Below, piece by piece: positions 33,900 through 60,040 of a stretch of 64,000 nucleotides of DNA. The position numbers and the translations under genes were made by a program. The notes under the pieces are model-generated. The model ran no database searches, was not told the origin of the DNA, and saw nothing but the letters and a program-made list of their open reading frames with translations. The stretch's first letter is position 1. Each line of letters starts with the position of its first letter. Origin of the DNA: Raillietiella orientalis (taxonomy: Eukaryota); assembly GCA_036172245.1 (NCBI GenBank), contig JAYWIR010000031.1, forward strand, positions 124,001 through 188,000, in the 5' to 3' direction.

Positions 33900-35000
33900 A
33901 GTATGCAGAGCCGAAGCAGTAACTTCGATTTTCAGGAATATTTAGAGTGCCCAAATGAATAATGAAGAGTAGTTGATCAACACAGAGAATAATGTCAAGC
34001 TTTCCTGGTTGCTACCCACATTGGAAACCAGCAGCAAAATACACTTGAATCCGGAAAAAACGGTAAGATTAAAAAACAGTGGATGGCCTTGATATGGATT
34101 GTGTGAATCATAACTATTCTGAAATCTTCTGCAGATGGTTCCTGCAAGCTGAGTGAAATCTGTCCGCAAATCATCAGTGCAAGATGCGGTGGGACGCGAA
34201 GTGAAAATTAAAAGTTATTTCTACAATCATAAAACACATACTGAAAAAGCAGGCTACTGAAATGTCATAAAGCAATGCAAAACCGCATTTTAACATATTA
34301 GGTGACACACTTGTCCTGGTCGAATTCTCAAGCAAGTATAGTACAAAGTTACATCGGGACGATTTCGAAAAAGCATCATCAAAGCTAGTCTTTACAGAAT
34401 CTGAAACGACAGAGTTGTCATTCTGAATCCACAAATTCAACTTCAAACCCAAAATTATATTTACGAATACTCCAGCAATCAGCACTCATTTCTTTCCATA
34501 GTGGCGAAAATCCAGTTCACAATTTCCAGTGCCATTTAACACAGATAAAAACGAAATAGCTATCTATATCTTCATTGAAAAATATCTCTGTTCTATATTA
34601 TTTTCCGTTTTTCCAACCGCTCGAAGACTTGATGTTGGTAGACACTGAAACCACCGAGAAATTTTCGGCTTGCCATATATGACTGTTCCGACATTCCTCT
34701 AAGTTAGCCTTTTCCATTAGGAATGAAACGTGAAAAACGCCAAACCGAAGAGTTTTAAAACAGATTACTTAATTACTACCGAAACTATTATGAAAGACCA
34801 AAAGTTTCCCAATGAACAAACTGCGCCATAAGAACGTTATGTTCAACTTTCTACAAGTACTTCATACTGTTGCAGCCACCAACCAGAGATTGATGCGAGA
34901 GATTCTCTGAACGCCAGTGGAGGAGCAATCGACTACAGTCGTCTTTCGATAAGCTTCATTCCCTCAACTGGGAACTTTCCAGTAAATACTGGTGTGCAAG
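33900..35000 (+). mobile_element. Degraded hAT-like transposase remnant
   Basis: MRWDA (TRW.S-like) near 34185, and FPN...ILLQPPT..CERFS...RLQSS (hAT dimerization-domain-like) near 34805-34960. Confidence 0.3.
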
Positions 35001-38900: not shown

Positions 38901-39989
38901 AATGCCGTGCATGCCGATTAGAAGATCAGATGGCTATCAAACTGCAATTTAAATACTGGAAATGAGGTGGATTGGATATGTTACGGAATTATTGTAAACG
39001 GAAACAAAGTGGAATATAAATGAAAGGAATTTTTGAAAGAGACTCGAACGATTTCTGCATCCCTCAAGGCTCAACATCGCGAGCATATTTGACATTTGTT
39101 ATCCTTCATGCTTATCAGCTGCCCTCTCCCTTTGCATGATGTAGGAATCGTTATATAGTGCAATTATTGAAGTTAAATACTAATTTTGTTTATCATAATA
39201 GTATACGACAGCATATAGTTACAATTATGGTTTCGAGTATTCGAAAATCCTACGATGCTGTAGGTGTTTGCTTCTACGTGAAGCTCTCCAGTTTTCTAAA
39301 CAGCAACTCTATAGGACTATGAGTTCCTCTGAACATAGAAACGCTGAAAGTAGTTGGTTTTGTGCAAGTTTTTTGTGCATCCCTAACTAGTCAACGGATT
39401 GCTTGTCTCTTCTCCGTTTTTCCGAAGCGGATAGCAATTTCTAGAGTATGAGTACACTGCCATTGCAGTCACTTGAGTTTTTCTTAGAGAAAGGTGAACT
39501 TGCATGTTTGAGTTTTCTCGGTGATGAGGATACTTTCTCGTTAGGAAAGGGATGCAAATCTGACATTTCGGTAAGGAAATTAGTGGAATCGAGCCGATAA
39601 TTGATACATTCATCAGAATGTGAAAGATGAATTTGCTGATATCAGAGTGTAGCAAAAGAGGATGTCAGTTCGTTTGCTCCCATCAAAGCTTCTGTTCATT
39701 AACTCGGAATTAAGTTTGACACTTATGTGAAAAATTGGTCTTCAAAGCACTGCCTTTTTGGATCTACTAAAACAGCATTACACAGTGGGCACGGACAGCT
39801 GGACTTTGAGGGAAGCCCCGCGCGCCAAAGGCGCAGCAAAAAGCTACAGCCGCGGCCGCGTTAATGAACAGCGCCTTCGCTATCGCCCGCTGCGAGAGGG
39901 AAGCGGTTGACGCTGAGGCTGTGAAAGCGGCTTTGGCGCCGGCGGCAACCTTCGCTCACGCGGAAACAGCATTAGGCTGCCACCAACAA

Positions 39990-40970
39990 AAAAAGCAGAC
40001 GAAACACCTGTCACGCGCTCAGCGCTCATACTCCGACGTCGAGTCCGACGGCAGCGCAAAAGTGCGCCAAGTCCCGGGGCAACCATGAGCTGCGCGCAAG
40101 CCGAAACTTGGCATGCGCGAGCTTGATGCCGGGAACGATTCCGATGCTCCTCGGAGCACGAGGCAATGCTTCTCGACTCCAAAGAGCCAGCCGCGTGAGG
40201 TGTGGCGGATGCCGGGAGCAGTTCCTCTCCCCAATCTGCCGTTGTCCCGGCTGATCCCCTGTTCCAGGGAGATCTGGGCGGGCGTTGCTGGGGAGTCCCC
40301 AATGCAACACCAGAAACGCCGACTCCTGCCATTTCAGGGGGAGGGCCCGGGTCTTCCTCAGCACTGGGGACCACTCGAGTACATCCAGCGGGATGCTCAG
40401 CAGCTCGCCCCAGCGCGATAGTCCTTTCGGTGGGGCACTTGGGGTCGCAGAGTCAGTTAGCTGGCCCGTGGTCCAACCACCTTGTTCTCTCTCTCTTCAC
40501 GAGATTCTGCATCGGACCTCCCGATTGGCCTGCTGACTACTGCCCAGGTGTTCCCTAAGGTAGGGCAGAGCCGCGCCTAGGAGGGTCCTCTCAGCTCACG
40601 CACTCGATGCGGGCTCCACGATGATGTCCTGCAGCGAGCTGCTGCTGTAAAAGGAGTGCAGCAATCGCTGCCGCAACTCCGGGCTCGCTTCCTCCTACTG
40701 AGTCCATGTGCGAAGGCTTTCCTGCAACCAAGTAGTGCCGTTCGCGGGCCGGCAGGAGATCCAGGTGTTCATCTTGGTCAGCTTGACCACTCGCCAAAGC
40801 TCCAGTCCGCAGTGGAACAGGTACCGATGTTTGTGGCGCGCTAGGAAGGTAGACAGTGTCGCGCAGCCGCTGGGTCGCGGAACCAGGTATCGTGCTGGTT
40901 GGCACCAGCTGGTGCTCCACGACTTCGCCATTAGGTCGGAGCTGCTGGTGCTGCACTGGGATCTCCCCTG
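39990..40970 (-). mobile_element. Possible 3' fragment of an L1/Tx1-like element
   Basis: GC-rich island with a broken reading frame, including WSPVLRKTRALPLKWQESAFLVLHWGLPSNAR, which resembles the zf-RVT-preceding region. The cysteine motif is not intact. Confidence 0.3.
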
Positions 40971-42861
40971 CAACAATTTCAAACTACAAAAACGTTCAAC
41001 CACAAAGTACACCAAGAACGCAGAACAAGAACCATCTGTTGCTTTATTCTTATATTTTCATACGGAACAGCTTATATGACGCACATACACACAAAAGAAA
41101 ATTCTTTATTTCCAACTTAATCTTTATCTAATATTTGTTCCTCTTGGTATACATTCGTGTCTCGAGCAACTACCTAATTTAGACCGACATGAAATGAAGA
41201 AAAGTCAGTCATAATTTATTTCTGTTCTTGATTAGGAAAGATTGCTTTAGGTGTATGTATTCGCTGAAGTTGTTTTTACGAATATTGGGATGCACCGCTG
41301 CTTTCAGTAATCCAATAAATATGCGCTGTGTTTTCACTGAACTTATTTATGAAACGAATCGTTTAGAAAACTTTTCCAACAGATGTCCGAATTTTCAAAT
41401 GCTCACAAATTTTATTATTCACTGAAGCTGAAATGTTAATCAAATTTGCAGGTACCAAGAGCTATTTAGTTCGAGATTATTGATTCAAAATGAATTTATG
41501 GAAGATTTGCGTCCAAAGATAAAAAATAACTATAATAAGCATCAGGGAGAAGATTCGATCCAGATACGAAGTCCGAAATACTGATTTTTTTTATTAATAT
41601 GAATCAAAGAAAATAGAAATTCTGTAAACCAAATGATATGAAGACAAAAAAACAAAAAAAAAAAGGTGAAATTCACTTTCAAAAAAAAAATGACTGAAAT
41701 GAAGAGGGATTTTACCAAACATCCATGCGTCTCAGCATGTTAAAGGTATTCTTTTTATAATATTTTAAACACTCGAAGCTAAGTTTAAACTAAATCGAAT
41801 CAACTAAAAAGTAGGTTGATAAGGCCCATACAAAAAGTAGATGGCTAATCTCTAAACGAAGATTATTTGACCCTTGATCTTCTTCTCATCAAATTATGCG
41901 TACAATTTCAAAGGTATTAATATTTATCATCTTAATCCAATGAGAACAGAAATACATAACAACGGTCCCGAAAGAGCATAGCCGTAAGGTTCTAATTCCA
42001 GGGCTAGAGTTTCGAAATTCCGTATATGAATGCTAAGATTATGAACAACTGATTTAATTTATGCTCTATTTCTAATAATGAAAACCCTATTTTCTTTTTC
42101 ATATGCATTAAATATTGGATTTACTTTGGAAGTTCTATGCATTTTGGCAAAGTTATGTTTCCGTACAATTTCTGAAAAGAAATTTCATTGATATGACACG
42201 GAAAGTAATATGAATGTTGAAATTGTTTGTTTTCAACTATCAAAGTTAAGTTATAGGCAAAGTAGGATCACAAAACAAGTTTTGATCAAAGCATGTCAAT
42301 AAAAAATAAAGATGCAATGGTTTCTCTTTTAAACTGAATGAATTACAATATACATGACATGCATTTGAAAGGGTAAACGCTTAATGCGAGCACAAATTTC
42401 TGAACATTTTAATTCTAGTGGAATACTTGAAGGAGTCTTTAGTTTATAAAAAATTCAGCAGTTTCTGAATCTCACTGTAATAATTATAATGAATAGTAAA
42501 TCTATGGATACATATCCTAGAAATTGCAAATTTTGAAATTTATGATTCCGTATTCGAAAGATTAGTAACGAATAATTCCCATATGAGATCAATACTCCGC
42601 ATTAATATGTAGTGAATGTTTAATACTTGAATTCATCCATTGGACTTGCTCTCGAATGCAAACCTGGTAGCCATGTTAGTGTGGTGCTATGGTGTAATTG
42701 GATGGAAATTGTGATCTCATTTAGCGAAAATGGAAAGTAAGAAAATGCTGTCAGAATCAGGAAAAGTTGTGTGGATGGTGATAAAATTGATGTAACAAGT
42801 AAAAGAAAACTGAATCTCATCTGTATATCATAACTTTGCTTCCAAATTTTCTAATTTAGCA

Positions 42862-45800
42862 ATGATTATGTTAACAGTCACGTATTTGTGTGAAAAATTA
42901 GTTGCATCAGTAGAATGCATAATGGATCCTTCTAGTGAGTCAAAGAAACGCGCAGACGCATATGAGTTTTCCGAAAAGTTCAAGGTATTTATTTACAAGA
43001 TTTCATTAGATAATAAGTGGATTTTGCTTAAACAAACTGCATCAATTCTGACAGCATGAGTCATTATGAATTTAGGTAGAATCGCAAACCAAATTTTTAT
43101 ACCAGTTTTCTTTTGAGAGTTGTAAATTCTCATAAACGGCTTGTTAGTTTCTCAGTTTGCTAATCGTCATTCTTAATGGTAATTTGGTTTAAAAAGAAAT
43201 AGAACTGATAGAATACAGGTATCCACTTTGAAAGATTGCAGCAGTTGTATTGTCGCAACCGAACCAAGTAACGACGAACTTGTAGATGAAGATTTTTGTC
43301 TGAGCGAAACCCATCCACGCATGTTACCAAGAAATTGCAGAAATTAGTGTTTTAATTGTTATTGGTCACTTTGGATTGCAGACTAGCCAAGATTTAGTTG
43401 GGAGTTAAAGAGTTATTGGACAAGAAAAGCAAAAAAAAACAGAATTTGATATACCAGCAGTTAATGTGTATATATACTCCCTATTGTTTTGCAAGAATTT
43501 AAAGTTTAGCTTTCTGTTCAGGAGACAATAGACTATTGAATACTTATTTATGTTTTTATTCTGTGTTTTTATGTCTTCTATTCATTCATATGTTCTATTC
43601 TCTGGATCTCTTGAAAATATCAAAGTGTCAGTGACTTGTTTTCTTTCTTGATGATCATGAGATTGTGACATGATGCTTTCTGCATGTGGTTTATCTTGAA
43701 ATTCTTGTAAGATTACGTATTTGCAACAAACATTCAACATGTGCTTTTGGAATTGAGTGGTTTTCAGTGGTCTGTTACAACAGTATCAGGGAATACAATA
43801 GTTCATAAAAGCTGAACATAATCGTCTGCATTCAGTGTATTTTTCATGGTTGATATAGTATCATTTTTATTTAAAGGCATGTGAGTAAAGTCTGTCTTCA
43901 AAACTATCTCAAGTTTTTATTTGAAATTAACAATTCATTTCAGTCTAGATTTTATTTTCAAGATTATCATTCTCAGAATTGTAGTGCTAGTGAGCAAACT
44001 AGCAGAGTGGTTACAGGGAACAAAATACACGTACATATCAATACTTCCTATTTTTCATGCAATAGTGAAGTACTATGCAATATTTCATTGTTGCATGAAA
44101 ATTGAAATGTGTGTAAAATTGAAACTTTTCAGAAGAGTACTGTGAATAGGAACCAAAGTTTGGATTTTGTTCTTTAAGGTTGAGACATTTCATTTGTTGC
44201 AACAGTCCACCTAGTAAGAATTGCATTTTCTAATACTGTGAAAATTTTAGTGGTATTTATTTCAGTATATTGATGAAAGTCAGTATTTTGGCTTATAACC
44301 ATATTTTGATGCTTTGTTCCATCAAACAAATAGTTCTGCTTCATATTCAGATATCTGATGAACTACTTGGTTTTCTGTTTATTATGTGTATATACAAATA
44401 GTTTCCATGCATATGTCTTGTCATAAGATTGTGATTAAGTGTCTAGTTGTGATTAATAAATCAGTGGCATTGTAGTGTATATGTTATGTTGGACCTTGTC
44501 TTTTGACAGAAATTGGTGTGGAAATAGGCACAAGGTTCTTGAAACATTCTTGCAACCAATGTGCTGTGGGAAGGAATGAAGTGATTTTCACTCATTTAAA
44601 TTATTTGGATTCTATTAGTCTCTCAAAGTAAACACTGCTTGTATTTTATGTTTGAGGATTCACATTTAATACACCAAATTGAAATTTCTTCCTAGTTTAT
44701 GGAGTTCTCGTTTATACTGTTTGTGTAACTTATAGTGTGGCTGCTGAATGCTTACTGCTGTTGAAAGGTAGTTGGGTTTAAATTTGGTAGTCTCCAATCC
44801 AGGATCTAATATGCAAAACAAAATAAGTCATTGAGAGAAAGATTCCAATATGTGTGCTTATTAAGTTTCAGACCTTCTTAAAGGTTCTTGAGCTTATGAA
44901 TAGTAGAAGGAAGCTTTTCCTCCATTTTGGGTATGTCAGCATTAGTAGGAATAGTCTTAGTGATTTTTGCCATTCTTGGAATATCGAAGTTTTATTTTAC
45001 ATAATCATTTAATGTATGAAAATAGGACGTGGAATACTTGGTTTTGTGGATGATTTTGAAAGCTTGTTTCATATAATGAACATATTCAAAAAGAATGATC
45101 ATGCACAATTGGTGGGTATTTTAGGAGATCGCAAAAACATGTTGCAGTAGATTTTCTGTCTCTATATCTTCTGCCTTTAAATCAAGCAAATCAAGGCATT
45201 CATTCCTAAGATGTAATTACTATAAAGTATTATGAATGCAAGCACAGAATTCGGAAAAACTGAAAGTACAAAGTAATGAATAATTTGTATTAATTAGTAA
45301 TTTTTGGAAACATAATCGAAAAGTATAGATCCAAATTTTTTTGTTAAAGTAGTGAAAGATAATCAATCAGTGACCTTTGTGTAAGTCTGAAATATTTCCA
45401 TTGCATCATCACATGATAAAAGAAAATTCTTTCTGACTTAACTTAATTCATTTCTGACTTAACAGGAAACTTAACAAGAAATAAATGTAAATTTATTTGC
45501 ATCAGTATTGAATATGAATAAATATGCAATAATTCTAAACAGCAATCGCCAACTGTGTCAAATTAGAAGAAAATGCTTGTTATAAGGTCATAACATAAAA
45601 ATTGCAATTGATATTTTGAACTGTCATAAAATGCACATTGATATATGAATTGGATGCTATCACAAGTTCAGCACTGTAGATGACAAACCAAGTTTGCTTT
45701 GCTCATAATTTTGGCAATGTATCAGAAATGTGCAATTTTAGTGCTTTTATAAAACATTACTTCCAAATACATATAACCTTGGTATTTACACAAGTAATTG

Positions 45801-48800
45801 GATTTTTGTGATTCTGCAAATTCTTTTTATGATTGAATGTCTCTTATCTTCATCTAGAAGTACATGAACTTCATACTGGATATCATTTCATTTTTCTTAA
45901 TTTTTTTAAGAAGGAAACCCCACTGGTCACGTACTTGGATTGTGGGTTCTTGTTGTGTCAATCTCATCAAAAAGCAGTTGTTCGCCATTTTGGATTACAA
46001 ACTATTCAAGATGCAATTCGAAATCATTGGATGCATTTCAGTCAACAGCAAAGAAATGAGTTAAAGGTTAGTGGAAACAGATAGTGTAGATTGTTATACT
46101 TCTTTGATATGAGAAGAATAGATCATTGGAACTGATACAGATGGATGTTAAGAGTGTTCTGGAAGAAGAAACTTTCATAAAAGATGCCATATCTCGTGTG
46201 GTAGTTGAAGTGATAAAATGGGAATGGCCTAGCAATTGGCCTTCACTGTTTACTGATTTGAGTACTTTGTGCAAACAAGGAGGATTGCAAACAGAACTGG
46301 TTCTGCTAGTGTTTCTTCGACTTGCCGAAGATGTAGCAATATTGCAGGTAGGATGTGCTGGTGGTTACCAGATACATTGATTTGGATAGACTGTGGACAA
46401 TAGCCAGAGACGTAGGAACTTATATATGGCTCTGATTGCTGCTCTTCCAACATTAATTCGATTTTTCGTGGACTTACTCAATACTCATGCTTCGGTTTTT
46501 GAGGCCTCCACAATACACGTTTGTGAAGTGAGACTAAGTAGTGTATTTGTCCACACATCAATTTGTCCTCTAGGTGACTCTTCAGACCCTTCAAACTTTT
46601 ATAGAATGGTCACCAATTAATCACTTGGTTGCCAATGATAATCATTTGGTGAAATCCCTGTGCTGCTGGTTACATCAAAAAGGTCTTCGTCTTTCTTTGG
46701 CTAATTGTTTATTCCAAGTGGTCAGTCGAAAGGGCAAAGTGAATGAAAGAAAGCAGCTTCTTTTTATGTTCCAAGAGGATTTACTATCCCAGTTAGAGCA
46801 AGCTGTCCTATCATGCTCTCATTCCAATGAAGATTCTGCTTATCAGTCATTAAAGAAGCTAGCTCAAATGTTTTCTTTACTTGGAGAACACTTGTGTGTA
46901 GTTTGGCAGAAGGATGAGGACTTTGTTTTACCATCCACACTGCCTGTGTACTTGACAATTATGCTTCAGTTGCTTAGCCACCCAAGTTTAGTGATCAGTT
47001 ACCATGCAGTACTATTCTGGACTAATCTATTGAATAGTTCCAAATTATCACAAATTACATTTTTACAGGAATCTGCATTAGTAGCAATCCTTGAAGCATC
47101 TTACAGCAAGATCTTGCGGGAAGGTCTGTCTACATCTTCTAAGCATGTTAATGTGTATGCAGCTGCTGACTTTGATTCAGATGAAGAATGTTTAGCATTT
47201 TTTCATAAAGCACGTACTGATTTCTGTGCATGTCTTCGTATTGCTTCTTCTTTAGTTCCAGAAAAGTCACTGAGTTATGCAGACCGCATATTACAAGCAG
47301 TGTTAGCTTTGGACCAAGAGAACTCTCAAACCCCAACTACGTACACTTCATCTGTTTATGTCCATTGGGAAGGTTTAGGCCAATATTTAGAGCACACCTT
47401 CCCCAAAATTTTGATGTCATCACCAACAAATTCTATGCTGGATCAGGCCTTCCATTTTCTGGAAACACTTCTTAGTTTTCATACAGCAGATGCATTGATT
47501 CTGTCTGCATTCCTGTCCTGTTTGTCAGCTGTGCTATGCTTGATAAACCTAAGACCACATTGGCTGACACCTGTATTGGACAAAGTATTTGCAGCTGTAG
47601 TCCATGGTGGACCAGCTGGTGTTCAGTTGACTAAAGGCAATCGACATGTGAAAAATGTACGTCGCCATGCATGTTCTTTGCTAGTGAAGGCATGCATCAG
47701 GCACCAGCAACTCATGTTCAGTGCATTTCATTCACTATGTGCTACTGTTCACCAGCTCCTTTTAGATCCAGAGCAACTTTCTTACCTGGAACAAGTGACT
47801 TTGCTGGAAGCTTTGCTTCTTCTCAGTAATGGAATAGCCAATTTTAATGAACAAGCTACATTTATATCTGAAATTCTGGAGCCCTCTAGGGAACAGTTAG
47901 TGAAACTACAATTGGTCTTGCAGTCAGTACCTTCGTTTTTGACATTTGTTGGTCTGGATAAGGATACAAGTGATCCTTGCCAGGAGACTTGCTCCCGAAA
48001 TCGTGCTCAACTCAGTTATTGTGTTGCTCTTCTGCTGGCTGTGATGAAAAGATGTTGCTGGCCTGCTGATCCTGACATTGCAGAACAGGGAGGCTATTTG
48101 TGCAATGGTGTTTTTTGGCATCCAGCAGTGACACATGTCTTGCCTCTGTTTGCACCAATTTTTATGTTGCTGCACACTTTGCATAATTTATGGCTACCAG
48201 AAAGCCTTGCTCGTATGTCTCCAGATTACAGTGCTGTACTGAAACTAACAGAAGGCGAGCGTTCGAGCATCTTGGGCATGTTTAATACTGTAGCTGATAC
48301 TGATCACCTGCGTCAGCATTCGCCCCAAGAAAAAATGCAACTATTCCTTGCCAATTTGCATGAGTCTTGCTATCATTTGTTGGCATCCTGGTGCTCCCAA
48401 CTCAGTGCTAGTTTATATGGAATGGTGGGAATTGTTCCTGCCCTTACATGCCTGTTTTCTACAAGCAATTACGTTCCTGATTATCGTTTTCGCTCTCTAG
48501 TACGGCTGTTCCTGAAGCCTTTTATTACATGTTGTCCACCTTCATATCATGCTTCTGTGTTGATACCTACGCTTTGTGTTGTGCTGCCCCTAGGTGAGTT
48601 TCATTTCAGGCAGATCATATATGTTTCAGTTACATAGTATTCCAGAGATTAGCTAGCCGATGGGAGCAGCTTAACTGTAGTCAAGGCTTTCAAAATGAAA
48701 CTCTGGAAACACAGGTAAAGACATGAGCAGCTGAGCAGGGTTACCCACTAGCATCCTACAGGAAGTCTTACAAGATCACCTCAACAGACTATTAACCAGA

Positions 48801-49611
48801 GAATATTTGGATGTGTTGAAGTGTCTGATGTGTAAACCAGTGAATGTGCAAGAACAAAATCCGGATGCAATGGAAGAAGATACTGATGAAACTGGCATGA
48901 CAGTAGGAGTAGGTGTGTCACTTAGTGATCTGGGCAGCGGTGTATTACATAATGCCAGTTTATATCCTGTGATCATCAGCAGCATTTTTAAGTAAGTCAG
49001 CTGCTGAAAGTGTATGAATTCTGTTTTTTTAGAATCCTGCATTGGCCAGATGCGCAGGCGTCTCTGAAAGCATGTGCTCTAGCCAGTCCAATTGTTTCCT
49101 GGTTATCTGATAATAAAATGCTCACTTCAGAGGAAGCAAGGAGCTTGTTACTGCAAGCACTTATAGGCATTGAGCAGCATGGCCAGCATGAAGCCAACTA
49201 CAGCAGCCTACTTAATCTGGCAATGCATATCTATGAATTGCTTCGACCTAAGCATTCCAATCTTTCTCAGCTTTTGCTCCAGCTTCCAGGTTGCGAAGAA
49301 AGCAATGTACAGCAACTAGATACATGTCTAGCAAAACGCACGCATGGTTGCATGAAGGGAATGCGTGTAGCCAAGGATTTGCTCCGCAACATTGTGCAAC
49401 CAGTAAATCAGTCATGATGATCTTGGTATAGGAATCATTCTTTTTTTTTCAGGTGGTACGTAACAGCATCAGTAATTTGTACTGTGATATCAAACCAACT
49501 TTTGAAGTACCTCCTTTAGTGAAGCCTCCAAAAGAAATTTCGGATTTGTTGTTAAAAGAAAATATGGCACAAGATGTAGGGTTGTGTGCATTATTTGGGG
49601 ACAGTTCTTGA
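42862..49611 (+). CDS. XPO5: Exportin-5 (pre-miRNA/dsRNA nuclear export karyopherin), 9 coding exons, ~1167 aa
   Basis: Exons 42862-42984, 45911-46066, 46117-46347, 46390-46527, 46574-48593, 48638-48714, 48762-48991, 49033-49402, 49453-49611 (3504 nt, frame preserved, GT..AG). Motifs LCEKLV..IMDP, VRHFGLQ, IKDAISRVVVEVIKWEWP, QTELVLLVFLRLAEDV, DFDSDEE, VKNVRRHACSLL, VPDYRFR and HGQHE match XPO5. The exact start codon and a possible further 5' exon are uncertain. Confidence 0.95.
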
Positions 49612-49628
49612 GAGCATGGCATGTGGTC

Positions 49629-49634
49629 AATAAA
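49629..49634 (+). promoter_or_regulatory. AATAAA polyadenylation signal, probably of XPO5
   Basis: Canonical hexamer 17 nt after the XPO5 stop codon. Confidence 0.6.
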
Positions 49635-49650
49635 GCCATTTAAGTCTGAG

Positions 49651-49658
49651 TTTTTTAG
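49651..49658 (+). promoter_or_regulatory. Unpaired 3' splice-acceptor-like site (TTTTTTAG) upstream of the NUDCD2 ATG
   Basis: T-tract plus AG, 19 nt before the ATG. No donor between the XPO5 stop and this site would give an intron of the 40 nt or more seen elsewhere in the window. Confidence 0.5.
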
Positions 49659-49677
49659 GTCTAATACATTGTTGAAC

Positions 49678-50214
49678 ATGAGTGACTCTTTATCACATTT
49701 TGATGAGCAAAGTGGCATAGTACCATGTGCAACGCCATGGGGATTATGGTGGCAAACTGTTGGAGAAGTATGTATAGAGGTGCAGATGCCTGAAAATACA
49801 ACTAGCAAGCAAGTGTCTGTGCAGATCAAGCCAGCACTCATTTCATGCACTATTGCTGGGAATACGATTTTCGAAGTAAGACAGCCAGTGAGTCAGAGTT
49901 CAGATATTCTGTCAGGGAAAGCTAAAAGGGATGGTGTTGGTTGATGAATGTATCTGGACTGTGGAGGATGGCAAAATATTACGTATTGTCCTCAGCAAAG
50001 CTGATTCCCACACAAAAGACCGCATATGGGAAAGTCTCTTGGAAGATGCATATCATCCAGATGCCTGGGTTTTTCATCAGATGAGGAGAAAGTTAGATTT
50101 GGAACGCTATCAAATCGAGGTGACATTGGAAAACTGCACTAGTAATTGACTGTTAGTCAGCATCCTGGTTTTGATTTCAGCAAAGCCCAACTATCAAAGT
50201 GTTATGAAGACTGA
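49678..50214 (+). CDS. NUDCD2: NudC domain-containing protein 2 (CS/p23-domain Hsp90 co-chaperone), 3 exons, 151 aa
   Basis: Exons 49678-49875, 49916-50119, 50161-50214, with introns of 40 and 41 nt. Peptides HFDEQSGIVPCATPWGLWWQT, WTVEDGKILRIVLSK and QMRRKLDLERYQIEHPGFDFS match NUDCD2. Confidence 0.93.
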
Positions 50215-50297
50215 TTATCTGGAGTATGTTGTTTCTTGCAGCATGCGTTGCTTATTTCCTTAGGAATCCTGTCCATGTTGTAATATATTACTGCCAC

Positions 50298-50303
50298 AAT
50301 AAA
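50298..50303 (+). promoter_or_regulatory. AATAAA polyadenylation signal, probably of NUDCD2
   Basis: Canonical hexamer ~84 nt after the NUDCD2 stop. Confidence 0.55.
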
Positions 50304-52699
50304 AACAGGTACAAAAACAGGTATGCATCTAAAACAAGATGGTATGCAGCATGATATTAAACCAAGATCTTTAGTACAACATATCAACATTTTGTTTCAG
50401 ACTTAAAGTTGATTATAGAACTATTAAGCAGCGATGGCTTCATTTTTTGAAAACAGTTTTCATTAAAAACTGTTAAGTGTTTGATCAGTGTCTATCTGCT
50501 GCCACACAGTCCAGTACCTGCCATCGTCCAGCAGTGTTGGATTGTTTAATCAATCACATATGTTCAGTGGAAAGAATAGCTTGTTTTCCCGGAATTCCTA
50601 TGATCTTTTGTAGTTATAAGTAAGGTAATAATAAAATCATGGCTTTAGTTTATTAAGCTAAGTTTATTTGTGTTTTTGTTGAATAGCTGTCAGTAGAAAT
50701 ATGTATAGTCAGTGATTATAACTTAACAATAAAGACTCATATCAGACTTCAGCGATGATGATGATGATGATAACGGGACACAGATTTCGCAACTGCCCTT
50801 ATCCAGCATTATTAATAGAATTATTGGCTGTTTTTTTAATGTCTTGCATTGCATGTGTTGGCAATTAGGTTTCAAACATTTTGTTTGAATAATTATGAGC
50901 ATTTCGCCCCAATACTAGTGTGGGTCAACTTCAGCTTAGGCCGTTCAAGTATTTTACATGATCCCAGTGAAAAATCTATGCGGAATTAATTGAAAACGGG
51001 AGCGCCATTATTTTAGTAAGCACCACTCAATAAGTTCAACCAAGCAACATAAACTTCATCTGTTTCTGATAAAACGTGATTTTGCAAGCCGGCAATAGAG
51101 AATGCTTTGTGAAATAAGCAGAACCTCATGTTGATCGACTACTGTTTTTAGGATGACAACGTCTACAAGAATTGCATACAGCATGTGATTAGCAGATTGG
51201 CCTCCGATTTCTCCATCACGAATTAGTTGATTATCACCTTAATTAAGGAAAGCTCGTTGCTACTGGTGAATAGTATTCTCTGAAAATTTCCTGAGGCATT
51301 TATTCGTCGCACATTTTTTTTTTTTTTTTAATGTTTGATTGGACCTTCACTGTTTTGCCATCATTAATACTCAGACTGCCTGTAGTGGTGTTGACTCTCG
51401 TATTTCTGATGCACTGTTTGCATCAGAACTACGAGAATTTTGCATACGGAAGAGCAGTCAGTATGTTTGTTGGGTCGTATAATGTTTGAATGTGACGCCT
51501 GCCCTCGGCAGTCACATATTGAGGCATGCAGTGTTGAGCTCGTGAAAACATTTAAATGCTTTCAACCGCGTGTTCCGTGTTGAATTTTGTGCTGTGCACT
51601 TTGTAGAAAGCCGTCTCTGTTTGTATGGTTTTTGGATTCAAGCAACTTCATGAAAAAGTAGCTTTAGGCCACTGGTAATTGCCCCGTGTGGACCCACTCT
51701 CGAAACAAAGCAGGGTATGAGTTTGTACCGAATGGGATTTGGTCGTTTGGTAGACTGTCATCCAGACCGTGTTCGATCTTCAGTATAGCACCGATTGATT
51801 TCTCCCCGATATCAACCTGTGGTGCCTTCTCGGTTATTACCACGAAGAATAGTGAGCTTTCATTCCAGCAGTGTAAGTGCTCCAGTTATGAGAGAAGGGG
51901 CAGAACTCCGGGGGGGTAGAAGGCGACTTCCCAGACCTAGGTTTACGTAAGCAGACCTACATTCCATGGGAGGCAGCCCCTCCGCGAATTGTAGGTCTAA
52001 AACTTAACAGGACTGCTCATGTATGGTCTCTGCATGATCGAGAAGCCTTTGGATCTTTGTAACCAGATACCAAAGACCTGTACAAATCAGTTGGGTAAAC
52101 ATTCTCAATCATACTAATACTTATTATTAGTAGGAGTATATTTCGGTACATGATAACAAACAGTACATCTTAAAACAGTGTGGTAACTGTCATAGGTGGT
52201 AGCCGTCACATATATCTTTATAATTTAATATATGGGGAACATGAAGTGTAAAAAAATGAGATTGTGTGAACAAAATCGAACATTTCAAAGTTTAACTGTT
52301 GTTGTTTTTTTATGACCACTTTCAGTGAGCATAACTCCGAGTTTGTCTTTATATTATCTTGTTTCCATTCTCTTGGAATCTTCTACATGTAGAAACAACT
52401 GCAGTATAATGCAGTTTTGTTTTTTGCTCCGTTTAAGCCGATTCTTTGAAGATGATTCTTTGGTTACCTTTCGTTGGTAAGAATGCTACTTTTTTATTAC
52501 TTTTCGTACTTGCTGTTGAGCCCTGACGATGCTGAGTTAGTGAAAAGCCTTTTTTTCAGAAAGATTTTGCTAAGTTTCCTTCATTTAACATGGTATTATA
52601 GAGGTCATTTCCATTTTTCTTTCGGAATTTCATGTCCATCTCTGGGTAACTTCCATCTTTAGGTGCCTTCCCAATAGGTTCCGTTTTTTGAAGGCGACT

Positions 52700-53950
52700 G
52701 CTTGAAAACATTGCACAGTGGTACACGCGTGCACTTTTGATACAGAAACGCGAGCGAATTCCAGATTCCAGGCATTGCTCCCCGCGAGTCGCAGGCACGA
52801 TGGCAAAAATCCCGAAACCCGACTTCCAGCTGCACTCGAGACTCTATGGCGTTTTCCCTGCTCCGGTCGTGCTGATCGCCATGGACGTCCCCGTCCGCTT
52901 CGGTTCACAGAAGTTTCGGTAGAGACTCCCTCGTGTGCCACACAAGCCACCAGCTGGATTCGTGGCCGTGGCGCTCCTTATCCAACACCCGGTTAACGCC
53001 CGGGTTTCCATAACTGAAGCCGGTTTTCGATGCGTATCTCTGGAGGATGCCTATAGCCTTTCCGCGGAACGCAGAGGTGAACGTAGTAGTCGTCCGCTTC
53101 GCTTCTATTCCGAAGCAGGACGTGGGGAGCTCCCTATTGCACGCGAAGACGAGCACGGCCGCATCCCTTGAAAAGCACGGACCACAATGATTTCAAAGGG
53201 GAAAAGGTTATTGCTCCAAGTGAGCTGGTCACGGCGATCTCTCATGCATCCCTGGGATGGATCTATCGTTTCTCGTATCCGGCAGTCAATGGACCCAGAT
53301 GATTCCTGAATTGAAAGTTCCAGAGCATCGAGGCTCTGGAAGGAGCTCCACCTGGAAAATCGTGAGAACGCTTCTTATGCGGAGCCCCGTAAGCATGTTA
53401 CCTGGTCCACTCACAGTCATCCAGTGGTTTCCTGTGGGGGAATCGTAGATACGGACAAACTCAGGGCGCTATGGACCCTTCCCATCCCACTGCACGACTT
53501 GTCCAACGACATCCCTTTATGTCCCCATGTAGACGTCCGGACTGATGTTGTCGCAGATGGGGTGGGAACAGCCGTGGATCTTCCCATAATTCCATCCACG
53601 GCATGCAGACGGCCCCTCCCGCGTTCCCCGATCGGAACTTCCACACTGCAGTGGTTTCTTGTATGGAATTTGGCCAGGATGCGGAAACCGCTGTGATTTC
53701 CCTGAGGCTCTGCGAACGCGCGCAGTTACTCCTCTTAGGCGCTCTTCCCTTCAGCCAGTGAGTTTCAGTTCACTCACCCTCCTCACTCGGAGCTTCATAG
53801 ATTTTGCTTCTTCGATAAACCATTCCGCAACCTCAGCTCCGGTCCTTCGGGCTCGATTTGTTCTCTTGGCCTTTTTTTTGCTCGAGAGGCAGCAGTCTCT
53901 CGAAATCCGACGCTTCTCTATGCCATGCGTTTGTTCGACGAATTCCCCGA
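52700..53950 (-). mobile_element. Degraded non-LTR (probably RLE-clade) retrotransposon remnant
   Basis: Weak ordered remnants: Q.PYKK, SGPGN (PGPDG-like), ADD, ILQRYASKTGFSYGNP. Confidence 0.3.
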
Positions 53951-56900
53951 ATACGAAGTTTCTTGTGAGGGAGTAGCAGTCTATTAAAGGGAAGTCCTCA
54001 AGGAGGTGAAGTGCAGAACGGGGCCAAGCAAGAAGTGCTAACGTACATTCCAGAGCAGGTCACATCCTTCACATCTCAGTGCGAGAGGCAGTGGGATCGC
54101 CAGATCAATCCAAAAGTTCCGTGTAAGAAGGGGAAGATGAAAGACATCTGGAGCCTCGATATCATGAACGAACGGAAGGAAAGCACTCTTCTCATCATGG
54201 CGACATCCACCATGCCAACGTGCTTGGCTTTTATGCACCCTCCCACCGTTTAAGAATCGAGCGACTTGATATTTCTTCAGTTCATGCAGCAAGTACTGAA
54301 AACTCCAATTGGAAATGGGATGTTGACCATGGGATGCAAAAACATTTTTGTTGCATAGCTCTGGTGGCAGCACGGTCACCGGAAACACAATCGTCTCGCT
54401 AAATTTTCCCTGTGATCCGCAGTGCGTGCAAGGAGGAAAAGAATCTCATGTATGCACTTTTTCTCTTTCTGAAGGTTGCTGCACCAAGGAATCTCGTTGT
54501 TTTGAGAACTCAAACAGCGACCTCAGCAAATACCTTTCAAAGTCATTGACGTGATCCTGATTTGCGAATGCGAGTTTCCTAATAATAATAGGAGAATGAC
54601 GCTATCGAGAGGTGGTTCACGCTCACAGATGCCACTGCTTGTTCTGAGTGCGTAACTCTGGCGTGAAGTCGCATTTGCATCTTTTCATCGTTCCATTTCA
54701 TTTTGAAATACCATCGAGGTGCTTTCAGCATCAGAATTTTCTGTCTTGAGCCCAGAAGAGGACGTTTCCTTTCTTTTTTTCATGTGATGGGGCAGCTACC
54801 ATGGCGATGCTGCTTGCCATACTTCCGTGATTGTCGCTCCCTAAAGAAAAGTAGCTGTGAAGACCGAAGTCAGCGTTCAGAAGTAGATTCATCAGCTTCG
54901 ATTCTTGGGTGTAGCTGACCTGCTTACTTTGAAAGAGCACCGTTGACTGCTTCCACGCCGGAGACCAAAAGAGCATCACTGCTTCACATTTCTGCACGAG
55001 TTCGTATCCATCCAAGAACCACCCACCTGTTTCAAAGGGGGGAGGACCCCTTTACACAGCGTGAGGACTCTGAGACTAGTGAAGCATTCCAAAGATCCTC
55101 AAATTTCCTTGTTTGCGGGGTCTCGGGTGGTGATGGTTCGGTAGTCATCGGAACGGATCGTGTGTCTGAGCAGCAGATGGCCGGTCTAGCTGTCTATCTG
55201 TGGTGGTGGTGGTGGACTGGTGTTTGGGTGCAGTCGTACGCGCGCGTGCGAAAGGTTGCAAGCACATCGGACGCTGCTGCATAGCAGCTACTCTGCATTC
55301 CTGTAGAAGATCCACTTGATCTCGGCCAAGGGGATCGAAAATTTGAAGGCTCGCAAAGCCGCACGCTGTATTTCAAGTATCGCTCAAGGACGTACTGAAG
55401 AGGTATCTCCTTCCTACTGCGTCCTTGCCTCCGAGACAAAGTGAGTGGAGTGCGTTTTGATGAGGTCAGTAGAGTTGGCCACCTCGCACTAACAAGGATG
55501 GTCCTTCATTTATTTTTTTTAAAGGTCAGTAGCGAGCCCACGAAGAGATCCTTACTATTGGCCTAGGATTATTTTCACCCGGTTTTGTCGGGGCATTTCT
55601 TACGTTACGTAATAAAAATACATTTTGGTGGTAGAACGTTGGCTCTGCCACTCTCAATGAACCTACCCAAGAGCGGTACGCAGACTGGCGTGGTCCTCTT
55701 CAGCAGCGTTGGGGAGGGGAAAACAAAAACACACACACAAAAATAAACAAACAAAACAGGGGAGGGGAAATTATACACGGGAAGGGGGGAGAGGAACCAA
55801 GGAAGGGATCACGGTACTTCACCAGGTGCCCTCTGCATCCTGTTCAGGATGTTGGGATAACGCCCAGGTGGGGCCACCGGGAAGCGGTTCTCAGGAAGAT
55901 CCGCGACCAGTGGAGGCATCCCTATCATTCTTGTCTCCTTCCCGCGTTCCAGGATGCCACGATTCCGCAGACGCAGCACAGAACTTCTAGGGACGTAGCT
56001 GGAGGCTCGGCAGAGCGGCACGCTCGAAAAGGCTTTTCCAAATGTCCCTGGAGCTGCCCGCCGGGATTCCTAGGATCGTCGCGAAAGGGTCAGAGGGCAG
56101 CACAGTCCAACAGCAGGTGCGGGAGGATCTCCTTCTTTCCGCACCTGTTGCACTTAGCGTCCACACTCCCGTGTCCAATGGTGAAGGTGCGCTTTGCATG
56201 CGATTCCCCCTTGCACCATCAGCAACGCCAACTCCTTCCGTTTGAGGGGTTCCAGCACGCTGGGGAGCCAATTCACGTCCTCCGGAGGGATTGCGAGCAG
56301 TCATCTCTAGCGTAGAATTCCGTGGGGTGGGACACTCAAGGTCACAGCGTCCGTGACCTCCCGAGTTGTCCACGTCCCAGAAGTTTAGTCTTTGCTGCTA
56401 TGCAGCACGTTACTTCCCAACTCGCCAGGATGACGCTACCCCTTGCGTCCCTGAGAGAGAGCAGTACTGGGGCAAGGAGGGTAGACGGGACCCGCAGCAT
56501 CTTCTGCGGGTTGCGGACGATCTCCTCTAGCGGCTTGCGAGCATTGAGGCCTCGCTGCAGGCAGGCGTACTCTGCCTCACTCACGCCATGGATCTTCCCC
56601 CATGCGGAGACGAGCGACTCCTGAAGCAAGGCAATGCAGTTCACTCAAGATGATGGAAGAGATCAACAGCGGCTCTGGCAGAGAAGAAATTCCCTAATGC
56701 TCCTTCTCCACATTCAGGAAAAGGGCTTGGATGAAGCCACACTCATTCGAAGACTCCTTGGAAGTTTGGAATCAGAAGACCACTCCGGGTTCATGGGATG
56801 AATTTCCTCCGTTCCGTAGCCGAGCACATGGGCAGATCGGGCGCCTTCGGGACACCAGACGTGAATTTCGCAAGAAGATCTTGCTCACTGGATTGTGGGA

Positions 56901-57799
56901 ACACTGCTGACGGTGCAACAGATCCCCAAGTTTCAGGCGCTATTCTTTTAATGTGTTCGGGAGGAAAGGGGGTTCTCCCGATTAGGCCGGGAGTTTATTT
57001 ATATATATATAAAAAAAGAAGATGCGCATACAGGGAACCAAGTTTCTTGTGGTTCAAAAGGAGAAGAAACAAAGCAGCGTAAGAGGTTCATTTGGGGGGG
57101 GGGTTCGCGAAAGAATTTCTTAGCAACATTTTCTTAGGAGCTTAGGAGAAAGACAGGAGGACACACAAATAAATAAATGATAGAGGTCACTGGGCGGGGT
57201 CACAGAGATTCCTGCTTCCTTCCTAAAGCTGCTGCAAGATGGAGGCGATCTCTCTGATGACTTGTGTTTTCAGATGGGACCACCTGCAAGCCTTCTTCGT
57301 GGAGGAAGCAGCGGAGTAGGTGGCTTCCCGTTGGGGTTGCTGTGGTTCGAGGGAGGATGCCGCGGATGCAGCAAGACGCTGAGGTCGCGGGAGGCAGACG
57401 AGAGATGCACTTGCGAGGAGGAGTGAGACGTAGCAGCCGTCCACGCAGTCGGCAGAGAGCACCAGAGCGATTCGATCGCACCGTAGCTGACACATTCCGG
57501 GGAGGCGCTCCCTACCGTAACGTGACGCTGGAGCTCGTTCCAGGGTGCCGGGACTCCTTTCCCGAGGGCCCTTCCTGGATTCATAGGGTGGTCCTCTCCC
57601 AGGGCACCCCCTAACTTGAAGAGTTACCACATACACCCTCGGATGGCGTAGAACAGCGTTAAAGAGCTCCGTGAGCCGCTAGGCGACGAACGGTGCTTGA
57701 GTGCTTAGCGGACCAAAAAAAGAAAACTCAATAAGAGCCCAATCCTTCTCTTCAGCTTAGACTTCGAACTGATGTTGAAGGCGAACAGGTGACTCCGGC

Positions 57800-58518
57800 G
57801 TCCCTACCTTCCCCAACTGTACATGCCTGCCGTCCTTGGAAGTCCATGAGATCGATTGACTTTCTCCTGCTGAGCCGTCCGACCTATGCGAACAAGCTCG
57901 AAAGGTTCCTCTATTGATGGGGAAGCGGGCATGATGGTCGAGGGGCCGGAATCCATGGTCGTCTCCGTCGGTAGGGAGTGGACAAGGAGACTGGATCGGA
58001 TCCGATTAGAGATGCTCACTAGCAGGTAATTGAAGCGCCTTATAGTGCTTCCGGGATACCTTCGCTTGACCAGCGGAAGTATCACCAGTCAAGAATCTTT
58101 TAAAATCTTCTTCCGAAGGTGGTTGCAGAAGTTTTTTATGAACCACTTCTCGAAGAGAACATTGGTCAAGATGCTTGACAGCGGTATCCGCTGATGTCAA
58201 CAGCTTAAAACGGCTATCAATGATGAAGGAATCAGCTTCATCTGAAAGTCGCATCAAGCCTAGGCACCCCATCCTTCGTTTTCCATAAAGGAACCGGTTT
58301 ACAACTCTCGATGGAAGATGTAACAGTTTCTTCACTTTTCTTCTTAGCACTCAAATGGCGGAACGGGAAGTCGTCCGCTCTGCCGCTGCTGAAGATCAGC
58401 ACTCGTGAACAAGTGAACACCCGGCACTCTAGCAGTGGGAGGCATGATGTGCACCCGGGCTAGGAGGCTCGGGAGCTGGGCAAATCTCCTGGGGCGTCAC
58501 CCGGGGGAACTCACAGTC
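57800..58518 (-). mobile_element. Truncated RLE-clade non-LTR retrotransposon fragment, Utopia/NeSL-like
   Basis: ORF 58006-58350 (VKKLLHLPSRVVNRFLYGKRRMGCLGLMRLSDEADSFIIDSRFKLLTSAD) resembles the post-RT thumb region of NeSL/Utopia/R2-type elements. It lies directly downstream of, and in the same orientation as, a U2 5' fragment. Confidence 0.7.
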
Positions 58519-58552
58519 CACTTTGATCGTAGCCAAAAGGCCGAGAAGCGAT
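58519..58552 (-). pseudogene. U2: 5' fragment (nt ~1-34) of U2 snRNA
   Basis: Minus strand reads ATCGCTTCTCGGCCTTTTGGCTACGATCAAAGTG versus the recalled U2 5' end ATCGCTTCTCGGCCTTTTGGCTAAGATCAAAGTG (about one mismatch). Similarity stops just before the branch-recognition GTAGTA is complete. Confidence 0.85.
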
Positions 58553-59723
58553 GTGCTCAGTCTCGACGCTCCGCCCGAGGTAGGAACGAGAACCTATTCT
58601 TGCGCCGAGATCTCCGGAGCAAACGCACGAGGATGGCGGCTGCGATAGCCCCAGGGTACGGTCGATGAGGGCTGCAGGAATGTTCCCTGCGCATGCATGC
58701 TTCTGGAATGTACGGGCATCCAGCAAGCGGGTGGAAGTGGGTGGTGGCGAGCACTCTTTCCCACCCGGAGGGTGACCTGGAGGAACTGTTGGAAAGAATT
58801 TTTGCAAAACGGCTCCCCTCTCCCCCCCCCCCCCCCCCCCGCTGCGGTGGCTGCAGTGCTGCTGAGCTTCATCCACGAGATCTCGTTGACCGGACTGGTC
58901 CGGGAACTCCGATGTAGCAGATGAGAACGGACGTTGCCCGGACGCAGAGCGTTGTGCCACGGCAAGGATCCTTCGCTTTCGTAATGTTACTAATCGCCGC
59001 CTCCCTGCCCGACCCGATCCTGAGATAAGCCACGAGCGGCTTCCCTCTTCTCCTTGGCCTATTCCTTTGGGGAGGGGAGGAAGTGTTTTCACTGCAGTAT
59101 AGCAAAACGCACCCGGAGCGACCGGAGAGAGAACGCCGCCGCGTGCGTTGTGCGCACGCACCGTTGCCGCGCCGCAAGCGCGAGTGGAAGCACGCAGCGC
59201 CACCCCATGACTCGGTAGGCTCACCGTATCGTTCCAATTTTAGTATATGTACCGCCGAAGCAGATACAGCCTCACTGTAACCGACAAAGAGACGCAGTGA
59301 CCGTCATTTGGGGCGTCTTCGTTGCCATCCCTCCTCCGGCCCCATCTGGCAGTGGGGCAACGCCTCCTGTGGGAAAACTTGTGGGAAACTGCGAGGTCCA
59401 GGATCCCACTCAGAGACTCGGTGGCACCGTGTCAGGATGCTGAAGGTTAGCATCCCACTCCATTGGACCGGGGGAGGTTTCGCTCTGTGCCTTGCCAGGA
59501 GCGGAAACGGAGATCACGTCGCACCTGTGATTCCCCCCCTCCCCCGACAGGCTATCGGTATTCTCCCTCAGCAGCTTCCAGCCCCTTCCTGGCTACTGCG
59601 CCCACCATTCCGCTACTCCCCTACTCGGCGCAAAGGCCGCAACAGCCAACTCCACCTTCCAGGGGGGAGGGTTCGTTCGAAGGACGCCATCTCCGGGGGT
59701 CTTTTTTTTTTAAAAAAAAAAAA

Positions 59724-60040
59724 GGCTAGTAGCGACCCCCACGAGGAGATCGTTACTATTGGCCTAGGACGATGGAAATCCTTGGGTTCTTCTTTTTTCT
59801 TCTGTCTTCACTGTTTTCCTTCCAGCTTTTTTTTTTTAAGAGTTTTCTTTCTTTTCGGTTCGCTAAGTACCTCAGAGCCGGTCGCGTGCCTCGCGGCGCA
59901 CGTGGCTCTTTTTGAACATTAAACACAGTTTTGTTTCCACGCCCCTCCGCCCGCGGCAGCCTGCAGGGGTGTGTGTAATTCTTCAGGATAGGGGGCACCC
60001 CGGGATGGGGGGGGTCCGCCCTATGAATCCAGGAAGGGCT
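59724..60040 (+). repeat. Repeat family segment: terminal hairpin motif plus a block shared in inverted orientation with 57568-57730
   Basis: 59724-59769 matches 55524-55568. 60019-60039 (CCCTATGAATCCAGGAAGGGC) is the exact reverse complement of 57568-57588, with further similarity around GGT(T/C)CGCTAAG. Confidence 0.7.

Follow-up and report, generated by a model that had tools for sequence, protein, structure and literature searches.

The subject of this analysis is the junction between two genes in a 64-kb stretch of genomic DNA (the window), in which the exportin-5 gene (XPO5, also known as Ranbp21) is followed on the same strand, and after only 66 nucleotides (nt), by the gene for NUDCD2. 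A presumed polyadenylation (poly(A)) signal and a very strong 3' splice-site-like element are placed between the two coding regions, and a single CpG-depleted domain extends over both genes. Based on these features we lean slightly towards the view that the two genes are co-transcribed and that the acceptor ending at 49658 is used to build the NUDCD2 mRNA, whatever the source of the leader joined to it. As for this source, we tentatively favour a cis-spliced leader that NUDCD2 would share with XPO5, which is a possibility we would not want to rely on by itself. All positions given are those of the window.

The junction between XPO5 and NUDCD2

The junction consists of the following elements:

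49609-49611, plus strand: stop codon TGA of XPO5; the C-termini of homologous proteins are at most 3-5 residues away, and it is therefore the natural stop
49629-49634, plus strand: AATAAA, the presumed poly(A) signal of XPO5, read from the sequence
49644-49658, plus strand: 3' splice-site-like element, GTCTGAGTTTTTTAG followed by G, the proposed acceptor for the NUDCD2 leader
49651-49658, plus strand: TTTTTTAG, the core of this acceptor, read from the sequence
49659-49677, plus strand: ATG-free segment of 19 nt, which would be the genomic part of the 5' untranslated region (UTR) if spliced
49678-49680, plus strand: ATG of NUDCD2, read from the sequence

The positions of the TGA, the AATAAA, TTTTTTAG, and the NUDCD2 ATG on the plus strand had already been given in a preliminary description of this DNA, and each of them proved exact when 49200-50100 was read again. 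The 66 nt between the XPO5 stop and the NUDCD2 ATG include 47 nt from the stop to the end of the acceptor. The AATAAA begins 18 nt past the stop and ends 24 nt ahead of the last base of the acceptor, and 24 nt is the usual distance between a poly(A) signal and the cleavage site. Six upstream ATGs are found in the last 275 nt before the NUDCD2 start (49414, 49417, 49564, 49574, 49616, and 49621). All six are 5' of the acceptor, and the 19 nt between the acceptor and the NUDCD2 start do not contain any. The acceptor had been called unpaired in the preliminary description, which is correct insofar as the interval from the stop to the acceptor holds no fitting donor. However, it could pair in cis with donors further upstream, namely those of XPO5 itself or either of the donor-like sites 42737 and 42799.

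Both the poly(A) signal and the acceptor were compared with their frequencies in the window. AATAAA is present in 39 copies on the plus strand, from which 0.03-0.04 copies are expected per gap of 47 nt. The core TTTTTTAG has only two copies on the same strand, one at 49025 and one at 49651, and the copy at 49025 is the real acceptor of XPO5 intron 7. The composite of AATAAA, 10-30 nt of any sequence, and TTTTTYAG has a single occurrence when both strands of the window are considered. An acceptor matrix of 16 columns, which was derived from the ten real acceptors of the locus, assigns 10.4 bits to the 49658 site, while the real acceptors reach between -4.9 and 9.3 bits if each is left out in turn. 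A score at least this high is attained by 22 of the 4154 AG dinucleotides on the plus strand, corresponding to 0.02-0.03 expected sites per 66 nt. The presence of AATAAA together with an acceptor at the junction is unlikely by chance.

The close spacing of the two genes is not a general property of this DNA. Upstream of the pair, about 42 kb are devoid of Pfam-recognisable open reading frames (ORFs), as are about 14 kb on its downstream side. Pfam searches with 135, 136, and 13 other ORFs of the window gave no convincing match, and their sole hit was one to MFS_2 below the threshold. XPO5 and NUDCD2 are thus a gene island, and because there is no other recognisable ORF around the pair, general compaction of the genome cannot explain the spacing of 66 nt.

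CpG depletion of the two genes and the related NUDCD2 loci

The base composition of the locus includes one extended feature:

43500-50700, no strand: continuous CpG-depleted domain with an observed/expected ratio (o/e) of about 0.3, which spans the XPO5 body, the junction, and NUDCD2

Upstream of XPO5 the CpG o/e is 0.98 (41100-42599), and at the XPO5 5' end it is 0.66 (42600-43499). The XPO5 body (43500-49299) contains 52 CpG with 195 expected (o/e 0.27), and intron 1 alone has an o/e of 0.28. The depletion continues through the junction (49400-49899; 5 CpG with 18.6 expected, o/e 0.27, Poisson p 0.001 versus the level of the flanks) and over NUDCD2 (o/e 0.30), before the ratio is back at 0.74 in 50700-52600. 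The footprint accordingly has its 5' boundary only at the start of XPO5 and its 3' boundary about 490 nt past the NUDCD2 stop, and within the depleted domain there is no CpG-normal island at the 5' end of NUDCD2. Of the 17 CpG in the 1.2 kb that precede the NUDCD2 ATG (o/e 0.33), three are in the last 300 nt (o/e 0.31). The highest ratio inside the gene body is 0.54 (49200-49499). The methylation of the bodies of housekeeping genes, with their upstream regions unmethylated, has been described as ancestral in arthropods (PMC7343188). The footprint reads as one germline-transcribed and presumably methylated unit. The depletion is confined to XPO5-NUDCD2, with ratios of about 0.75-1.0 in the flanks, which suggests mosaic gene-body methylation.

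For comparison, we used nine related loci (L001-L009), which are metagenome contigs matched by NUDCD2 exon 1 and which represent about five distinct sequences. Exon 1 of these loci is 55-58% identical to that of NUDCD2 in the window and exon 2 59-61%, with the boundary between the two exons at the same place in all nine. The DNA available upstream of NUDCD2 amounts to 1.4-9.5 kb and is at least 6.7 kb long in four of the loci. When the nine loci were searched at E-values up to 0.01, neither the XPO5 exons from the window nor the full-length proteins of Hetaerina and Limulus matched any XPO5 segment. The adjacency of XPO5 and NUDCD2 is therefore a derived state, or at least not a general one. 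A comparison of synteny in relatives had been proposed in the preliminary description, and the outcome is that the neighbourhood is not conserved (0/9), which neither proves nor disproves a coupling of the genes in the window.

The related loci also differ from the window in their CpG content. In all nine, 44-55 CpG are present in the 1.2 kb that precede the NUDCD2 ATG (o/e 0.88-1.20), while positions +300 to +1100 of the gene body are depleted (o/e 0.04-0.17). Thus, the CpG-normal upstream region that the solo NUDCD2 has in 9/9 related loci is lost in the window. In addition, all nine loci have an acceptor-like TATTTAYAG/GTGAG (the slash marks the splice position) 11 nt ahead of the NUDCD2 ATG, and this gene may have had an intron in its 5' UTR, directly before the start codon, for a long time. 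About 540 nt upstream of NUDCD2 are conserved among the nine loci. In L003, a fragment of an ISXO2-like transposase is encoded on the minus strand (5680-5925), 3.6 kb upstream of NUDCD2, which is the only Pfam match in this locus.

A proposed shared transcription unit with a possible common leader

In the reading we favour, RNA polymerase II would transcribe XPO5 and NUDCD2 as a single unit, beginning near 42.6-42.8 kb and thus upstream of XPO5. Cleavage after the AATAAA at 49629 would result in the XPO5 mRNA. Transcripts reading through this site would be spliced at the 49658 acceptor, by which a 5' leader would be joined to the first coding exon of NUDCD2. Such splicing would strip off all XPO5 sequence including the six upstream ATGs and would leave a clean 5' UTR. 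Because poly(A) cleavage and the use of the nearby acceptor are mutually exclusive on a single RNA, the two mRNAs would compete for each transcript. The leader itself would be a short exon ending at 42736 or 42798, which would also feed the XPO5 acceptor at 42859. The corresponding intron in front of XPO5 is:

42737 or 42799 to 42859, plus strand: probable 5' UTR intron of XPO5, predicted by a donor matrix scan

Both coding regions are preceded by an acceptor-like site, NUDCD2 by the one at 49658 (10.4 bits, 19 nt ahead of the ATG) and XPO5 by a weak one at 42859 (4.7 bits, 2 nt ahead of the ATG). The donor matrix scan of 38000-49640 revealed four unpaired donor-like sites of at least 8 bits, two of which are at 42737 (AAA/GTAAGA, 9.8 bits) and 42799 (CAA/GTAAAA, 8.9 bits), which is 123 and 61 nt, respectively, upstream of the XPO5 5' acceptor. 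Judged from these sites, XPO5 probably has a cis-spliced 5' exon. There is also an ATG at 42730-42732 directly before the donor-like site at 42737. Splicing to 42860 would bring this ATG into the XPO5 frame and extend the N-terminus by Met-Glu-Thr, and the true XPO5 start codon may therefore sit in an upstream mini-exon.

Gene pairs with a common beginning are known from arthropods. In Drosophila melanogaster, 130 genes are annotated by FlyBase as sharing promoter and 5' non-coding exons (PMC4528330), so that the XPO5-NUDCD2 locus with a shared cis leader would be a new case of a known arrangement. Like Ip259/RpS27A and other such Drosophila pairs (PMC4528330), XPO5 and NUDCD2 are unrelated genes on the same strand of an arthropod genome, their coding regions would be entered via an acceptor before the ATG, and one leader and promoter could serve both. 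In presumable contrast to the layout of these pairs, NUDCD2 is located behind the whole of XPO5. As the NUDCD2 acceptor sits at the XPO5 poly(A) site, splicing would here compete with 3'-end formation. Another difference is that the shared exon of XPO5 and NUDCD2 is predicted from donor-like sites only.

Several observations weigh against a shared cis leader or reduce the force of the arguments for co-transcription. The exon ending at 42736 contains the ATG at 42730, and other ATGs are present in the candidate leader as well. With the donor at 42737 joined to 49659, the ATG at 42730 would open an upstream ORF of seven codons ending 2 nt before the NUDCD2 ATG, and this would hinder the translation of NUDCD2. 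The XPO5 5' acceptor, which the same exon would feed, is weak, and for a cis intron of 6.9 kb, between about 42.8 kb and 49658, eight good acceptors of XPO5 would have to be passed over. The run of T at the junction could represent the U-rich element downstream of the XPO5 poly(A) site, combined with a chance AG. Since a U-rich tract is expected directly downstream of a poly(A) cleavage site, part of the acceptor signal has an ordinary explanation. Similarly, some of the CpG depletion upstream of NUDCD2 is to be expected, given that this DNA is the body of the XPO5 gene, and a small promoter in a methylated gene body might leave no island in windows of 300 nt. The adjacency of the genes is absent from all nine related loci, and the comparison thus gives no support for selection on their linkage. 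Finally, the acceptor-like motif of the related loci can also be read as a donor (CAG/GTGAG), which makes it a weak argument for an old intron.

In the preliminary description, NUDCD2 had been proposed to be either resolved from an operon by trans-splicing or cis-spliced from a leader exon shared with XPO5, both of which presuppose transcription through XPO5. Such co-transcription is indirectly supported by how strong the acceptor is, by the CpG-depleted domain being a single one, and by the isolation of the two genes, while for trans-splicing nothing was obtained beyond the geometry of the junction. That NUDCD2 has no promoter of its own had been assumed there from the lack of space, and this assumption is indirectly strengthened by the missing CpG-normal island, which is different from all nine related loci.

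If the two genes are co-transcribed, the junction would be a clean natural case of competition, within about ten bases, between forming the 3' end of one mRNA and the 5' end of the following one. How much of an RNA-export factor is made relative to a chaperone cofactor would then depend on RNA processing and not on promoters. The comparison of CpG footprints may be of wider use, since asking if the CpG-normal upstream region of a gene disappears once the gene is located behind another requires nothing but sequence. Co-transcribed gene pairs could in this way be screened for at low cost in unannotated genomes without RNA data.

Identity of the genes and position of the species

The coding regions of the two genes are:

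42862-49611, plus strand: XPO5 (exportin-5) in nine exons, from Pfam matches, tblastn, and optimisation of the exon junctions
42862-42984, 45911-46066, 46114-46347, 46390-46527, and 46574-48593, plus strand: XPO5 exons 1-5
48638-48714, 48762-48991, 49033-49402, and 49453-49611, plus strand: XPO5 exons 6-9
49678-49875, 49916-50119, and 50161-50214, plus strand: NUDCD2 in three exons, 151 codons

The XPO5 model was obtained by tblastn with the exportin-5 proteins of Limulus, Hetaerina, and Lottia, followed by optimising the GT-AG junctions against four homologues. It agrees with the numbering of the last exons as 8 and 9 in the preliminary description. The Pfam family Exportin-5 (PF19273) matches the open exon of 687 amino acids (46574-48637) with an E-value of 1.2e-70 and the next-to-last exon with 2.9e-09, and the domains IBN_N (PF03810) and Xpo1 (PF08389) are matched on two of the 5' exons. 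The exon of 687 amino acids is 33-37% identical to named exportin-5 proteins over 97-98% of its length, and the tblastn alignments cover residues 8 (approximately) to 1245 of 1248. By this similarity the upstream gene is a full-length exportin-5.

In NUDCD2, exon 1 (residues 2-58, E-value 8.5e-13) and exon 2 (residues 61-126, E-value 2.4e-13) each have as their sole match in the PDB the structure 2rh0, which is named 'NudC domain-containing protein 2', and a Pfam CS domain is present. A search for homologous proteins with exon 2 gave no match. By its structural and domain matches the downstream gene is NUDCD2. That it is a retrogene was considered and is ruled out by its two retained introns and by the exon 1/2 boundary, which is common to the nine related loci. 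The first AATAAA or ATTAAA is located 84 nt past the NUDCD2 stop.

The introns of XPO5 comprise 2926, 47, 42, 46, 44, 47, 41, and 50 nt, and those of NUDCD2 40 and 41 nt. Accordingly, nine of the ten introns of the two genes have 40-50 nt, most of them without a pyrimidine tract, and they are unusually small for a locus in a gene-poor region. XPO5 also contains one giant exon of 2,020 nt (46574-48593).

The closest relatives of the XPO5 protein, with 33-37% identity, are from horseshoe crabs, odonates, decapods, an ostracod, krill, a limpet, and scallops. A HMMER search of 1.84 billion representative sequences resulted in 417 XPO5 matches, of which the best is 37% identical, and neither the species nor any near relative of it is represented in the protein collections searched. 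In a maximum-likelihood tree (47 rows, 952 columns, LG+C20 model, quick search of IQ-TREE) the XPO5 of the window is part of a clade of 21 rows comprising sequences of an ostracod, krill, decapods, a mayfly, and odonates. This clade is supported by a Shimodaira-Hasegawa approximate likelihood ratio test (SH-aLRT) value of 100, and it is apart from the horseshoe-crab clade and the molluscs. The branch of the window's XPO5 is long (1.5), and its placement within the clade is unsafe. The tree thus puts the sequence in the Pancrustacea, presumably in a lineage that has not been sampled so far, which supports the term arthropod-like used in the preliminary description.

Alternative origins of the NUDCD2 mRNA

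The layout of the junction would be the same if the leader was not encoded upstream of XPO5 but added, with its cap, in trans from a spliced-leader (SL) RNA encoded elsewhere in the genome. In this case the two genes would be an operon without an intercistronic region, cleavage would happen just upstream of 49658, and the NUDCD2 mRNA would start with the leader of the SL RNA followed by the 19 nt of the genomic 5' UTR. We regard such an operon as unlikely. Neither the geometry nor the strength of the acceptor, the positions of the upstream ATGs, or the CpG footprint distinguish it from a cis leader. A leader derived from an SL RNA would be clean and free of ATGs, which the candidate cis leader is not. 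Given the 24 nt between AATAAA and the end of the acceptor, cleavage site and acceptor would coincide as in the SL1-type operons of C. elegans and in the operons of Ciona intestinalis and Oikopleura dioica (PMC7986045), which likewise have their genes on the same strand and a poly(A) signal tens of bases before the acceptor. In Ciona the median distance between poly(A) and trans-splice sites is 1 bp, and for Oikopleura a cut-off of 60 bp has been applied (PMC7986045). In contrast to the hosts of those SL1-type and tunicate operons, the host here is an apparent pancrustacean with a footprint of gene-body methylation. The placement in the Pancrustacea would suit trans-splicing in so far as SL trans-splicing has been documented in copepods (PMC4664967) and amphipod SL sequences are given in the Methods of PMC5111886.

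Several points speak against trans-splicing. The acceptor in front of XPO5 has two good cis donors within a short distance upstream, pointing to normal cis-splicing at that acceptor. Most pancrustacean lineages are not known to trans-splice. Rfam revealed no SL RNA gene in the window, where none is expected, and the published SL sequences of copepods and amphipods were not searched for. The mosaic CpG pattern is a sign of gene-body methylation, in which the window differs from the amphipod Parhyale (PMC7343188). Trans-splicing is found among ctenophores, chaetognaths, and nematodes, the three animal phyla that have repurposed gene-body methylation for transposon targeting (PMC12460157). Operons were still unreported from copepods and amphipods at the time of PMC7986045.

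The chaetognath Paraspadella gotoi provides a further example of housekeeping-type genes in short distance: its operons, whose genes are less than 250 bp apart, are resolved by trans-splicing, and operon genes account for 18% of all genes (PMC12460157). However, chaetognaths are another phylum, and trans-splicing has been linked to the disappearance of gene-body methylation (PMC12460157), whereas the gene body in the window is CpG-depleted. Our literature search, which covered article listings and the passages cited here, found no report of an SL-resolved operon in any arthropod. An SL operon in a pancrustacean with gene-body methylation, unlikely as we consider it, would be the first such operon known from an arthropod. 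A trans-spliced leader would extend operons to the arthropods, and to a genome that has kept gene-body methylation, and would therefore bear on the link that has been proposed between trans-splicing and the disappearance of gene-body methylation (PMC12460157).

A further explanation is that NUDCD2 is transcribed from its own promoter inside the 3' end of XPO5, that is, within exons 7-9 or the 3' UTR. The transcripts would either run unspliced through 49658 or contain a private leader, for instance with a start in XPO5 exon 8 and re-use of the donor at 49403. The element TTTTTTAG would then be a U-rich downstream element with a chance AG or the acceptor of a private 5' UTR intron. Overlapping tandem transcription units are common in arthropods. 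Monocistronic transcripts of a downstream gene usually originate from a downstream promoter (PMC4528330). In the related loci NUDCD2 appears to have such a promoter within the approximately 540 conserved bases upstream. The gene-body maximum of the CpG o/e (0.54) would be compatible with a promoter at 49200-49499. A start at 49624-49677 would provide a 5' UTR without upstream ATGs, but any start upstream of 49624 would leave up to six of them in an unspliced leader. Also against this explanation, there is no unpaired donor-like site of at least 8 bits from 45794 to the junction. In addition, the low CpG ratios of the 300 nt and 1.2 kb before the ATG are in contrast to the related loci, and an acceptor of the observed strength is rarely expected by chance within 66 nt, as calculated above. 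With tens of kilobases of non-coding DNA around the genes, nothing forces a promoter into the coding exons of a neighbour. Thus, we consider an own promoter in the 3' part of XPO5 rather improbable.

Finally, the two genes could be expressed from a mature dicistronic mRNA of the Drosophila type. The AATAAA at 49629 would be ignored in a fraction of the XPO5 transcripts, the mRNA would end at the poly(A) signal of NUDCD2, the acceptor-like site would remain unused, and NUDCD2 would be translated internally or by re-initiation. In D. melanogaster, 159 dicistronic pairs have been reported, and the 66 nt fit into the range of -34 to 319 nt between stop and start in loci with polycistronic transcripts only (PMC4528330). 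The single CpG-depleted domain would also fit, as would the XPO5 stop and the NUDCD2 ATG being in frame without a stop in between. Like the Drosophila dicistronic loci and CheB42a/ppk25, the pair in the window would have an arthropod primary transcript with two cistrons; for CheB42a/ppk25, a dicistronic pre-mRNA has been suggested from which the pair would be cleaved (work cited in PMC4528330). Unlike the Drosophila dicistronic loci, which need no acceptor at the junction, XPO5 and NUDCD2 have a poly(A) signal and a strong acceptor between the cistrons. Both the canonical AATAAA so close to the stop and the very strong acceptor argue for processing at the junction. Re-initiation after an upstream ORF of about 3.6 kb is implausible, and two further ATGs (49616 and 49621) are present in the spacer. 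We therefore consider a mature dicistronic mRNA very unlikely.

Further observations at the junction

Between the XPO5 TGA and the NUDCD2 ATG, which share the same frame, there are 22 sense codons. If a transcript stayed uncleaved and its TGA was read through, a fusion of the XPO5 and NUDCD2 proteins would result, and the in-frame ATG at 49621 would extend NUDCD2 by 19 residues. A stop-free spacer in this frame is obtained in a fraction of about 0.055 of spacer shuffles and may be due to chance. An in-frame fusion of the two proteins by an unrecognised intron was rejected: with respect to NUDCD2 the 49658 acceptor has phase 2, and a reading frame entering from a phase-0 donor, for example that of XPO5 at 49403, would meet a TAA at 49662-49664. 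An Rfam search of 49000-50400 at E-values up to 1 gave no match, and an antisense ORF of 147 amino acids, which spans the junction, has no Pfam match.

Surroundings of the gene pair

In the whole window, Rfam found no match at the gathering score and ARAGORN no tRNA. Two direct repeats (17277-17663 and 28373-28785) are located 11.1 kb apart and align over 266 nt with 95% and over 61 nt with 74% identity. They flank a GC-rich block (about 55%) without a Pfam-recognisable ORF and may be the long terminal repeats of a decayed retroelement. The window contains five GC-rich blocks in total (10800-14500, 18000-27000, 34900-41000, 52650-60300, and 61440-62550), which have a GC content of 53-60% and a CpG o/e of 0.85-1.05 and are embedded in DNA of 30-40% GC. 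They account for much of the DNA around the gene pair. There is no detectable similarity between the blocks, and the match to MFS_2 mentioned above (22988-23356, minus strand), which is below the threshold, is their sole Pfam match. In all of these blocks the six reading frames are open.

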